Source: Rhabdochlamydiaceae bacterium (GTDB lineage Bacteria; Chlamydiota; Chlamydiia; Chlamydiales; Rhabdochlamydiaceae). Taken from it: 64,000 nt of DNA. The notes under the pieces were generated by a model. The model was not told the origin of the DNA and ran no database searches. It was given only the letters and a program-made list of their open reading frames with translations. A program made the position numbers and the translations under genes. This document shows, piece by piece, positions 27,566-29,782 of this stretch (the stretch's first letter is position 1; every line of letters begins with the position of its first letter). Location: positions 672,001-736,000 of the forward strand of contig JAJREF010000001.1 of NCBI GenBank assembly GCA_047459655.1, given 5' to 3'.

Positions 27566-27633
27566 TAAGGAACCTCTGGACAAGCCATTTGCCAGATCTT
27601 GGTGCCAATTTTTGCGAATACTAGATTTTTCGA
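27566..27633 (-). repeat. Half copy of family-B palindromic element, truncated at the intron 3' end
   Basis: 68 bp collinear with the reverse complement of 25213-25280. Confidence 0.88.
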
Positions 27634-29565
27634 ATCGCGTAGGAGGGAGCCTTTAGGCTCCCGTCCTCGCACACCACCGTACGTACGGGACCGTATACGG
27701 CGGTTCCTGATCACTATGACCCAGCTCGCACTATGTTCATCATAGGTGTGTATCCCATTGCTTCAATAACCCTATTTGATACCCCTTTGTGCATGCAGTA
27801 GGTCTTTGCCATTCTCCATGGCCCTTTACTACTATATGCATGCTTTCTGGCGGTGCTATCTTTAAGTCCAAGTTCTTCTAGTCGTTTATGTCGCGTTCTA
27901 GGTTGCTTCCACTGTCGCCAGAGGATAGACCTTATCTTGCGCCTTATCCATCCATCTAATTTCTCAAAGATTCCTCGTTCATCCGCTATGCCAAAGTAAT
28001 TGGCCCATCCTCTTGTAAGTGGCATGAGTTGTTTTCGGATGCTATTCGTTAACTTGCTGCCTCTCATCTTTTTAGTGAGTCCTTTTACTTTGTCTTTAAG
28101 GCGTTTCACTCGGCTTTCGTGAACTACAATCCGATGCGGCTGTTTTTCCGCTTTGAAGGTAAACCCTAAGAACGTGCGCTTCCATGGGTTATCCACAGCA
28201 CTTTTCTGCTCATTGACTTTGAGTTTGAGCTTCTTAGTCAGATATCTGACTGCTGCTTCCATTACGCGTTTGCCTGCTCTTTCTGTTTTAACATAGATAT
28301 TGCAGTCATCAGCATATCTTGAAAATCGCAGTTTTCTCTTCTCTAATTCTCTATCAAAGTCGTCTAGCATGATGTTGGATAGTAATGGTGAGAGGGGCCC
28401 GCCTTGCGGCGTGCCCTCTTCTGTTACTTTTACAAGTCCATCCTCCATGACTCCTGCTTGGAGATATCTCCTGATCAGAAGGAGGATTTTCTTGTCCTTC
28501 ACTCGTCTTGCTACTCTTGCCATCAACATGTCATGGTTGACTTTATCGAAGAACTTTTCCAGGTCGATATCTACAACCCATGTGCATCCTTCTTGGATGT
28601 ATGCTTGGGCTTGTAGCACGGCTTGCTGAGCGCTTCGATTGGGTCTAAATCCATAGCTATGTTGGGAGAATGTTGGATCGAATACAACGACTAGCTCTTG
28701 ATGTATGGCCTGCTGGATGATCCTATCCATGACGGTGGGGATTCCCAATTGTCGAACCCCTTTTCCATCTGGTTTTGGTATTTCCACCCGTCTTACGGGG
28801 CTTGGCAAGTATTTTCCATCAAGGATGTCTTGTTTGATCTTGGGCCATTTCTTATGCATGACCTCTTTGATCTCTTCTGTGGTGATACCATCTATTCCAG
28901 GTGCTCCTTTGTTACGTATTACCGCTTCAATGGCTTTCTGGATATTGCTATCCTTCGTGACTCCTTCTATCGTTGCGATAGGGGCGTCATAAGGATCGCT
29001 AGGTAGGAGAGATGTTTTCCTTTCTGCCTTGTCAACTGTCGCACTTTTCAGAAGCTGTGAGGGACTCTCTCCCGGGTCTTCTGTTTGAGCTTTGGATTTT
29101 TCCTCTTTTCTGCGATTATTTGTTGTCATAGAAGTTTGGTTCTCTCCTTTGTTTTCATGTTCGGACCTTCAGTGTCTTAAAAAAAACACCTACTACGTCG
29201 TCTGCTGACTGCTGTACCGTTCGCGTCGTCTCTCCGAGACACCGCTAGCGCTGTCGTTCCCCTCTTTTGTCGGGTACTAGTCAGGCGTGGATACAGCTCT
29301 CACCGGGTAATTCATCATACTTTCCTACTAGCCTGTCGCATCTACATGAACCCTTCCGAGCAAGTATAGGACTTTGGATTCCAGTGCATCCTTATCCTAG
29401 GGTTACTGCCTCATATGCGCTTCCTATTCGTCGGGCCAGCATTTTTGTATACGGCTTTCTTCAGATCCCGCTTCACGGCGGGCACCCTTGCCTTCTCTAA
29501 TGGTTCTCCTTGCTAGAGTCCATAGAGGACTTTCACCTCCTAGTGTGATGACATACCGGTCGCAC
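27634..29565 (-). mobile_element. Group II intron, class IIC (about 1.93 kb)
   Basis: 5' GTGCG at 29565; DV GAACCGCCGTATACG..CGTACGTACGGTGGTGTG with CGC triad; DVI ending CCTACGCGAT; inserted just after a hairpin. Confidence 0.93.
27714..29129 (-). CDS. ltrA: Group II intron reverse transcriptase/maturase without endonuclease domain
   Basis: GAPGIDG, RQLGIPTVMDR, GTPQGGPLSPLL, RYADD, RGWANYF. Confidence 0.96.
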   Translation of the reverse strand: MTTNNRRKEEKSKAQTEDPGESPSQLLKSATVDKAERKTSLLPSDPYDAPIATIEGVTKDSNIQKAIEAVIRNKGAPGIDGITTEEIKEVMHKKWPKIKQDILDGKYLPSPVRRVEIPKPDGKGVRQLGIPTVMDRIIQQAIHQELVVVFDPTFSQHSYGFRPNRSAQQAVLQAQAYIQEGCTWVVDIDLEKFFDKVNHDMLMARVARRVKDKKILLLIRRYLQAGVMEDGLVKVTEEGTPQGGPLSPLLSNIMLDDFDRELEKRKLRFSRYADDCNIYVKTERAGKRVMEAAVRYLTKKLKLKVNEQKSAVDNPWKRTFLGFTFKAEKQPHRIVVHESRVKRLKDKVKGLTKKMRGSKLTNSIRKQLMPLTRGWANYFGIADERGIFEKLDGWIRRKIRSILWRQWKQPRTRHKRLEELGLKDSTARKHAYSSKGPWRMAKTYCMHKGVSNRVIEAMGYTPMMNIVRAGS

Positions 29566-29782
29566 ACAGAAGCCAAACTCTTGGCTTCTTTCATAGGCAA
29601 AAAAAAGCTTCCCCGTCGGGGAAGCTTTTGTTTTGCCGATGACCGGCTCCGGGCTACCCGCCGGTTCGTGTCCTGCATGACACTTCACTTCGAGTCCGGA
29701 CAGAAGCCAAACTCTTGGCTTCTTTCATAGGCAAAAAAAAAGCTTCCCCGTCTGGGGAAGCCTTTGTTTTGCCGATGACCGG
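29566..29782 (-). repeat. tRNA-linked tandem repeat (2 x about 82 bp, period 134 bp)
   Basis: 29566-29646 nearly identical to 29700-29782: tRNA 3' end, terminator and second hairpin. Confidence 0.9.
29733..29764 (-). terminator. Rho-independent terminator of tRNA-Leu(CAA) (duplicated at 29599-29628)
   Basis: GGCTTCCCC-agac-GGGGAAGCT followed by a T run on the minus strand. Confidence 0.88.

Follow-up and report, generated by a model that had tools for sequence, protein, structure and literature searches.

A class C group II intron between a tRNA-linked terminator hairpin and one arm of a dispersed palindromic repeat

Group II introns are a source of genome rearrangement, as in the intron-driven rearrangements of Wolbachia. 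According to PMC4424553, those of class C (IIC) recognise a DNA stem-loop together with a short IBS1 and IBS3, their proteins are without an endonuclease domain, and their reverse transcription is primed by nascent strands at replication forks. Beyond a hairpin, the target needs to offer only a short IBS1 and a single base of IBS3 (PMC4424553, PMC7923331). Two consequences for genome structure are also on record: deletions that arise when group II intron copies undergo homologous recombination (PMC4424553) and, as described in PMC7923331, the proposal of Leon and Roy that a terminator and an attC site were joined by recombination between two IIC-attC introns. Here we describe an intron in a 64,000-nt stretch of DNA from a Rhabdochlamydiaceae bacterium (hereafter the window) whose 5′ flank is a repeat unit linked to a tRNA gene and whose 3′ flank is one arm of a dispersed palindrome. 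The intron is an ordinary IIC intron; what is unusual is the use of the hairpin of a MITE-like repeat as a target, and the rearrangement scar.

The full-length intron occupies 1,932 nt on the minus strand (27634..29565), beginning with GTGCG at 29565 and ending with GCGAT at 27634, and is the only ORF-bearing copy in the assembly. Its ribozyme is small, with 516 nt outside the ORF, and matches the Rfam families group-II-D1D4-3 (RF02001, 29482-29311, 123 bits) and group-II-D1D4-1 (RF01998, 29246-29164, 47.9 bits). Domains V-VI (27634..27705, minus strand) match RF00029 with 40.7 bits against a cut-off of 40, over model positions 1-77 of 77, and since this full model stops exactly at 27634, the 3′ boundary is exact. 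The ORF (27714..29129, minus strand) encodes a 471-aa protein in which the only Pfam matches are a reverse transcriptase (RT) domain (RVT_1, with the YADD motif present) and a maturase domain (GIIM); no endonuclease domain was found in it. In a ranking against solved structures in the PDB, its best relative is the GsI-IIC RT (E 9.1e-140, residues 52-459), followed by chain 7uim, another group II intron RT/maturase (1.8e-109) and presumably that of the E. rectale IIC intron, by LtrA of class IIA (7.4e-42) and by the maturase RT 6me0 (6.5e-36), presumably the IIB T.el4h protein. Ribozyme domains, an RT lineage without an endonuclease domain and insertion at a stem-loop are all as in class C, and, judged by the PDB ranking of its RT and by its Pfam and Rfam domains, the intron is a member of that class, as the initial annotation of this DNA had proposed. 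Its ORF is intact, with YADD in place, and the intron is probably mobile. By tblastn, the 471-aa RT is the sole one of its kind in the genome, and the assembly holds exactly three group II intron copies, namely the full copy and two ORF-less mini-introns. In a genome of the same genus (G002), a 99%-identical intron 3′ end lies at a different site.

Upstream of the intron, the minus-strand order is tRNA-Leu(CAA), a first repeat unit (R1), a spacer (Y), a second repeat unit (R2) and then the intron. The tRNA gene (29769..29853, minus strand; called by ARAGORN, Rfam tRNA 55.2 bits) contributes its last 13-14 nt to the start of R1 (29700..29782, minus strand), which consists of the tRNA 3′ end, a terminator hairpin, a second hairpin and GT, and which corresponds to the 5′ exon of the intron as its unoccupied sister copy. 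R1 continues into Y (29647..29699, minus strand; 53 nt, read from the sequence) with CCGGACTCGAA, an 11-nt inverted copy of the T-arm of the tRNA, and at its far end Y closes with a degenerate version of the T-arm/acceptor 3′ strand, the whole repeat unit behind tRNA-Leu(CAA) measuring 134 nt. R2 (29566..29646, minus strand), the second copy of the tRNA-linked unit, is the 5′ exon itself: it is 96% identical to R1 over 83 aligned positions, and the homology ends exactly at the intron junction, which bears out the original reading of the 5′ exon as the tRNA-linked repeat hairpin with a sister copy that diverges there. The 5′-exon hairpin (29568..29589, minus strand) has a 9-bp stem (29589-29581/29576-29568), the loop GAGT and a DNA folding energy of −9.1 kcal/mol, and the 2 nt between it and the splice site are GT (29567-29566). 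Behind tRNA-Leu(CAA) in a genome of another genus (G016) we found arrays of the same architecture as R1-Y-R2; there the tandem array stops just past the second hairpin and the intron is absent, which makes it less surprising that the homology between the R units stops at the junction in the window. No repeat unit was found behind tRNA-Leu(CAA) in the same-genus genome G002, and no tRNA gene lies beside the related introns at any of 80 metagenome loci, the flanks of which are short.

The sequence on the other side of the intron belongs to a palindromic element of 168 bp, which we call B. The 3′ exon (27566..27633, minus strand) is the right arm of B: read from 27633 to 27566 it matches B positions 101-168, the last 68 bp, and is complete to the terminal inverted repeat of the element. 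It is 85-94% identical to the full B copies and 89% identical to the intact reference copy at 25113..25280 (plus strand), in which the arms (1-68 and 101-168) enclose a central 8-bp hairpin followed by GAGT, so that position 101 falls 4 nt past the hairpin. Both the extent of the 3′ exon and this 4-nt offset in the intact copy are as first described. Short, non-coding, multi-copy and bounded by terminal inverted repeats, B is MITE-like. The genome contains 65 full and 30 partial copies of 84-96% identity, and tandem copies share terminal bases. The central hairpin is perfect in 43 of the 65 full copies, and 54 of them carry [G/A]AGT and then the same right-arm start; with this many full and partial copies, and so common a right-arm start, the match at the breakpoint is not a matter of chance. 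Element B matched in none of five relatives, and its 21-nt centre has no match among genome contigs when its own genome is excluded. The convergent neighbour on the 3′-exon side is upp, encoding uracil phosphoribosyltransferase (26761..27507, plus strand; Pfam UPRTase, 3.5e-53). A neighbouring insertion sequence (IS) of 1,466 bp has ends that differ from those of B; an origin from this adjacent IS was also considered for the palindromic element with ends TAGACCTCTTTCGAAA and rejected, since that motif lies outside all 10 IS copies, whose start is at 29915.

The centre of B serves as a homing site for the same intron lineage in another population (freshwater metagenome run X4), where the intron is 96-99% identical to that of the window and has B on both sides. 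One X4 contig that matches the intron 5′ end up to 29567 continues with TTGCTAACATTCTGCATGTTAGCTCCGTTC, which is B's central hairpin plus the bases preceding it, in reverse complement. A second, of 430 nt, leads from the intron interior past its 3′ end and 28 nt further along the B arm, which is 3 nt below our criterion for bridging; it is 96% identical, with 16 differences, 1 of them in the last 120 nt. With B on either intron end in these contigs, the same lineage sits in B at the exact position seen in the window, and, as the intron is flanked there by the B hairpin and the B right arm, the B centre is therefore a real homing site. One lineage is thus found at both kinds of site, at the tRNA-linked hairpin (the genome described here, G000, and the lake-water run X1) and at the B centre (X4), and both flanks of the window intron have the form of a IIC site, with 2-4 nt after a hairpin.

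The relatives of this intron show comparable preferences. RT relatives are encoded at the 80 metagenome loci, the best with 89% amino-acid identity, and a hairpin of at least 6 bp lies within 5 nt of the junction in 38 of the 47 unique 5′ exons from these loci; clear hairpin 5′ exons were present in three of four relatives. At 16 of the 39 unique clade sites for which both junctions are available, at least 10 of the first 30 bases of the 3′ exon pair with the 5′ exon, and 11 of those 16 palindrome-centre sites beat all 30 shuffles. On this pairing, the clade introns at such sites lie mid-way in longer palindromes. The suggestion that a dispersed palindrome acts as a landing pad has accordingly been strengthened from three sides, by the B-centre intron of X4, by one of the mini-introns described below and by the 16 palindrome-centre sites. 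A literature search found nothing relevant on IIC introns in MITEs, in a collection that lacks most subscription journals and so does not imply that such cases are unpublished.

To place EBS1 we aligned four intron lineages and then scored 51 unique exon/loop combinations. EBS1 corresponds to the bases right after the GC of the D1 loop, and by alignment and covariation it is ACTGG in the window intron (29381..29385, minus strand), where the loop reads GGAT-GCACTGGA-ATCC. In 45 of the 51 combinations EBS1 forms at least 3 contiguous pairs with the exon end, and over the clade its partner is the final 3-5 nt of the 5′ exon. The initial annotation had picked the right loop, with a candidate EBS1 of four bases; by position the motif is ACTGG and forms 4 of 5 pairs with both exon ends. 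These two pairings differ in continuity. With the present exon end, 2 of the pairs are contiguous, which makes the window intron one of 6 such cases among the 51, and with the GAGT of B, 3 are contiguous. The match to B is thus the better of the two, and the tRNA-side site looks like an ectopic insertion. Class C introns have a short EBS1-IBS1 pairing of 3-4 bp, and the weak IBS1 match is the one feature examined in which this copy is an exception.

The two mini-introns are identical ORF-less derivatives of 691 nt (C5:319182-319872 and C3:40903-41593) that keep D1-D3, the start of DIV and DV-DVI; in these parts their identity to the full copy is 81% and 97%. Their EBS1, GTAG, matches CTAC at both mini-intron 5′ exons, and the first 3′-exon base differs between them (T and A). 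The C3 copy directly follows the hairpin at the centre of a different palindromic element, of which at least four empty copies have the two flanks joined without interruption. On contig C5, the centre of a family-D element is replaced by a unique hairpin and a mini-intron. Being without an ORF and having an EBS1 of their own, the mini-introns are like other ORF-less group II intron derivatives that are mobilised in trans, and we infer that the single RT of the genome mobilises them.

Because both boundaries of the window intron are intron-type sites to the nucleotide, recombination between two copies fits best: we hold, at little better than even confidence, that the hybrid flanks stem from homologous recombination between an intron resident in B and an intron on the tRNA side. 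On this view, one intron would have inserted by homing at the middle of a B element on the upp side, and a second, in direct orientation to it, would have gone in behind the tRNA-linked hairpin with a poorer match. A putative crossover inside the 1.9-kb intron, involving an equally putative former second copy, would then have yielded a single intron with the 5′ flank of the tRNA-side copy and the 3′ flank of the B copy, with deletion of the intervening DNA. The left arm of B would have been lost in this way, and a deletion between direct copies would leave no reciprocal product. Such a recombination had been proposed from the start, and it stands as the best fit to the two exact boundaries; on the other side of the account, the assembly, with exactly three copies of which two are minis, contains no second full-length copy, no junction between the left arm of B and the intron and no reciprocal product, and the reciprocal junction that was to be sought among all intron copies is absent. 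A two-copy intermediate or reciprocal product was likewise not found in G000, nor among the X1 entries listed. The comparison of upp/tRNA-Leu synteny that had been recommended was carried out: the same-genus genomes have about 70% DNA identity in upp and no tRNA within 1.5 kb of it, and these relatives are too distant for the ancestral state to be read.

The junction could also be older than the intron. In that case the tRNA-linked unit would have been fused to a solo right arm of B by a deletion, stimulated for instance by hairpins or by the palindrome, and a single intron insertion would have followed, falling exactly at the pre-existing junction since it is the hairpin that determines where the intron goes in. 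We regard this course of events as unlikely, though it deserves real weight. Right-arm-only copies of B without an intron start at B positions 88, 92, 100, 103, 103, 104 and 107, within a few bases of 101 in cases such as the arm from position 100 (C1:496358-496289), and X4 shows a further junction at B position 101; it is therefore conceivable that an arm beginning at 101 was there on its own before the intron came. The intron-free G016 array ending past the same hairpin, the dinucleotide GT common to both candidate deletion ends and the modest target needs of IIC introns (PMC4424553, PMC7923331) are consistent with this order of events. It requires, however, two independent coincidences that are exact to the nucleotide, one at 2 nt past the hairpin and one at B position 101, and the latter is the exact homing position in X4, whereas the other seven solo arms scatter over 88-107. 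Moreover, a join of 27633 to 29566 occurs in no contig of the four runs examined, a result to be read with the caveat that contigs cannot show absence.

Recombination between two copies and an older junction both take the assembled sequence at face value. The source assembly is of metagenome type (5 contigs, 1.61 Mb, 81.6% complete, 5.8% contamination), and such an assembly might have merged intron copies from different loci or strains through the shared 1.9 kb, an explanation that we consider very unlikely. The assembly resolves the 65 full B copies and 10 IS copies of >99% identity, which suggests that the reads behind it were longer than the intron. Among sequencing runs, X1 is probably the source run; 0.69 of the words sampled from the region occur in it, and its contigs are identical to the window, while in three further freshwater runs the fraction is about a quarter. 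In X1, intron-internal contigs have a depth of 4.4-5.7, equal to that of the unique flanks (5.05 and 5.26), and one contig (record 7), with 102 nt on the intron side, bridges the 5′ junction. Together these argue for a single copy and against the assembly collapse of two copies that the initial annotation had offered beside recombination, and no loose end corresponding to the B centre is present at the 5′ junction among the loose ends listed for X1. Two features of X1 nevertheless lean towards a merged assembly. No bridging contig for the 3′ junction is among those listed, record 1 ending at 27625 and the next beginning at 27634. The X1 contigs also differ from the assembly by one 134-nt unit: the bridging contig joins 29565 straight to 29700, with 41 nt ambiguous and one Y-R2 unit missing, and therefore has one repeat unit there, not two, and 29566-29699 has no cover in X1 beyond the contig that joins across that stretch. 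Either the number of units is polymorphic or the X1 contig took a short-cut through the repeat.

Among the origins considered here, we judge least probable a single step of aberrant retromobility, in which, for example, the cDNA of a donor resident in B was primed or resolved at the tRNA-side hairpin by template switching, so linking the two loci, and a second stable copy never existed. Such an event would be in keeping with two boundaries that are both defined by the intron and with the weak EBS1-IBS1 match at the present site. The B arm, however, is complete to its terminal repeat, with no donor-flank DNA beyond, which fits an element that was already in place.

Whichever way the flanks came together, B offers dozens of near-identical and probably harmless landing sites in a 1.6-Mb genome, and in this genome one B half-site alone is occupied, despite the 65 full copies. 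Together with the tRNA-linked hairpin and the MITE-C hairpin of the mini-intron, the centre of B provides a clean natural target set for testing how a IIC RNP reads hairpins. If the hybrid flanks arose through recombination between two intron copies, as we favour, they are a concrete genomic example of what was proposed for the genesis of integron cassettes, that is, of intron copies at different stem-loops joining unrelated sequences. A broader reading, which we consider quite doubtful, would see in the locus a natural record of how a IIC intron serves recombination as a bridge and fuses two unrelated hairpin-bearing repeats, here the terminator module linked to the tRNA and an arm of a MITE. 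Exchanges of this kind, with splicing and reverse transcription afterwards, would shuffle central hairpins and arms among palindromic repeats into new variants, and the family-D element would be a second product. Were this true, new repeat variants would arise as integron cassettes were proposed to arise.

Among described introns, B.h.I1 and GsI-IIC, which lie after intrinsic terminators, resemble the window intron in having an RT/maturase without an endonuclease domain and a small ribozyme. They are also alike in their 5′ exon, a stem-loop followed by 3-5 nt of IBS1, with target rules taken from PMC4424553, whereas here preference goes to the hairpin at the centre of a dispersed 168-bp palindromic repeat and not to the terminator of a gene. 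With respect to the deletions between intron copies cited above, the locus differs in preserving the scar alone, as a single copy whose flanks have two origins. The IIC-attC introns of the S.ma.I2 type, together with the Leon-Roy proposal, are similar in that one lineage uses two kinds of stem-loop target and the flanks are joined. In contrast to that proposal, neither an integron nor an attC site is involved here, the joined parts being a tRNA-linked terminator module and a MITE arm, and the hybrid junction is seen as genomic DNA, whereas the two-copy intermediate is not.

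Besides the full-length class C group II intron at 29565-27634 (minus strand), which carries the only intron ORF in the genome, the assembly contains two ORF-less mini-introns of 691 nt, both outside the window, at C5:319182-319872 and C3:40903-41593. Their first 445 nt are 81% identical to the full-length copy and their last 92 nt 97% identical, and their EBS1 reads GTAG, matched by CTAC at both 5′ exons. The C5 and C3 mini-introns are identical in sequence, which suggests that they moved recently, presumably mobilized in trans by the genome's single RT. The C5 copy lies within a family-D palindrome (C5:319072-319932) whose ends are GAGACCTCTGCACAAC; at this site about 58 nt of the palindrome's center are replaced by a short stretch and a hairpin, followed by the mini-intron, so the flanks of this intron are likewise non-contiguous in empty D copies. 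The hairpin upstream of the mini-intron occurs only once in the genome.

An intron 3′ end 99% identical to that of the full-length copy was found at a different site in the same-genus genome G002, at a contig edge (C24:1-127), which argues that members of the genus share the intron lineage and that it is mobile among them. In a metagenome contig, one intron copy has the 5′ end of a second copy as its 3′ exon, so that the two form a head-to-tail tandem pair.

Within the window, the intact copy of the 168-bp palindromic element B (25113-25280) is traversed by the first of two minus-strand ORFs (25112-25957 and 26039-26698) into which an M61-peptidase-like gene (25112-26698) is split, and this gene may be a pseudogene or one with a B-derived 3′ end. 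Elsewhere in the genome (C2:181787-182055 and C1:162937-163435), element B also forms head-to-tail arrays in which adjacent copies have terminal bases in common, and another palindromic element can nest inside it at about position 117. The window also contains a 1,466-bp IS (29915-31379), present in 10 genome copies at >99% identity, whose HTH and rve_3 ORFs are broken into three frames. Just beyond its end, the 16 nt at 29899-29914 are a terminal piece of the palindromic element in which the C3 mini-intron sits.

The tRNA-linked repeats at 29566-29782 form two units with a period of 134 nt. A contig from the lake-water metagenome run X1, the probable source, joins the intron's 5′ end (29565) straight to the first repeat copy (29700), omitting one 134-nt unit with 41 nt ambiguous at the join, which reflects either a polymorphic number of units or a short cut in the assembly graph. 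Each unit comprises a direct copy of the 3′ end of the tRNA acceptor, a terminator and a second hairpin, together with the T-arm of that same tRNA as an inverted copy. In G016, a genome of another genus, such units (loci L014 on C7 and L013 on C4) follow two tRNA genes: tRNA-Leu(CAA) has about 3.5 copies with a length of 154 nt, and tRNA-Leu(TAA) has about 4 with a length of 131 nt. The unit architecture is kept across genera.
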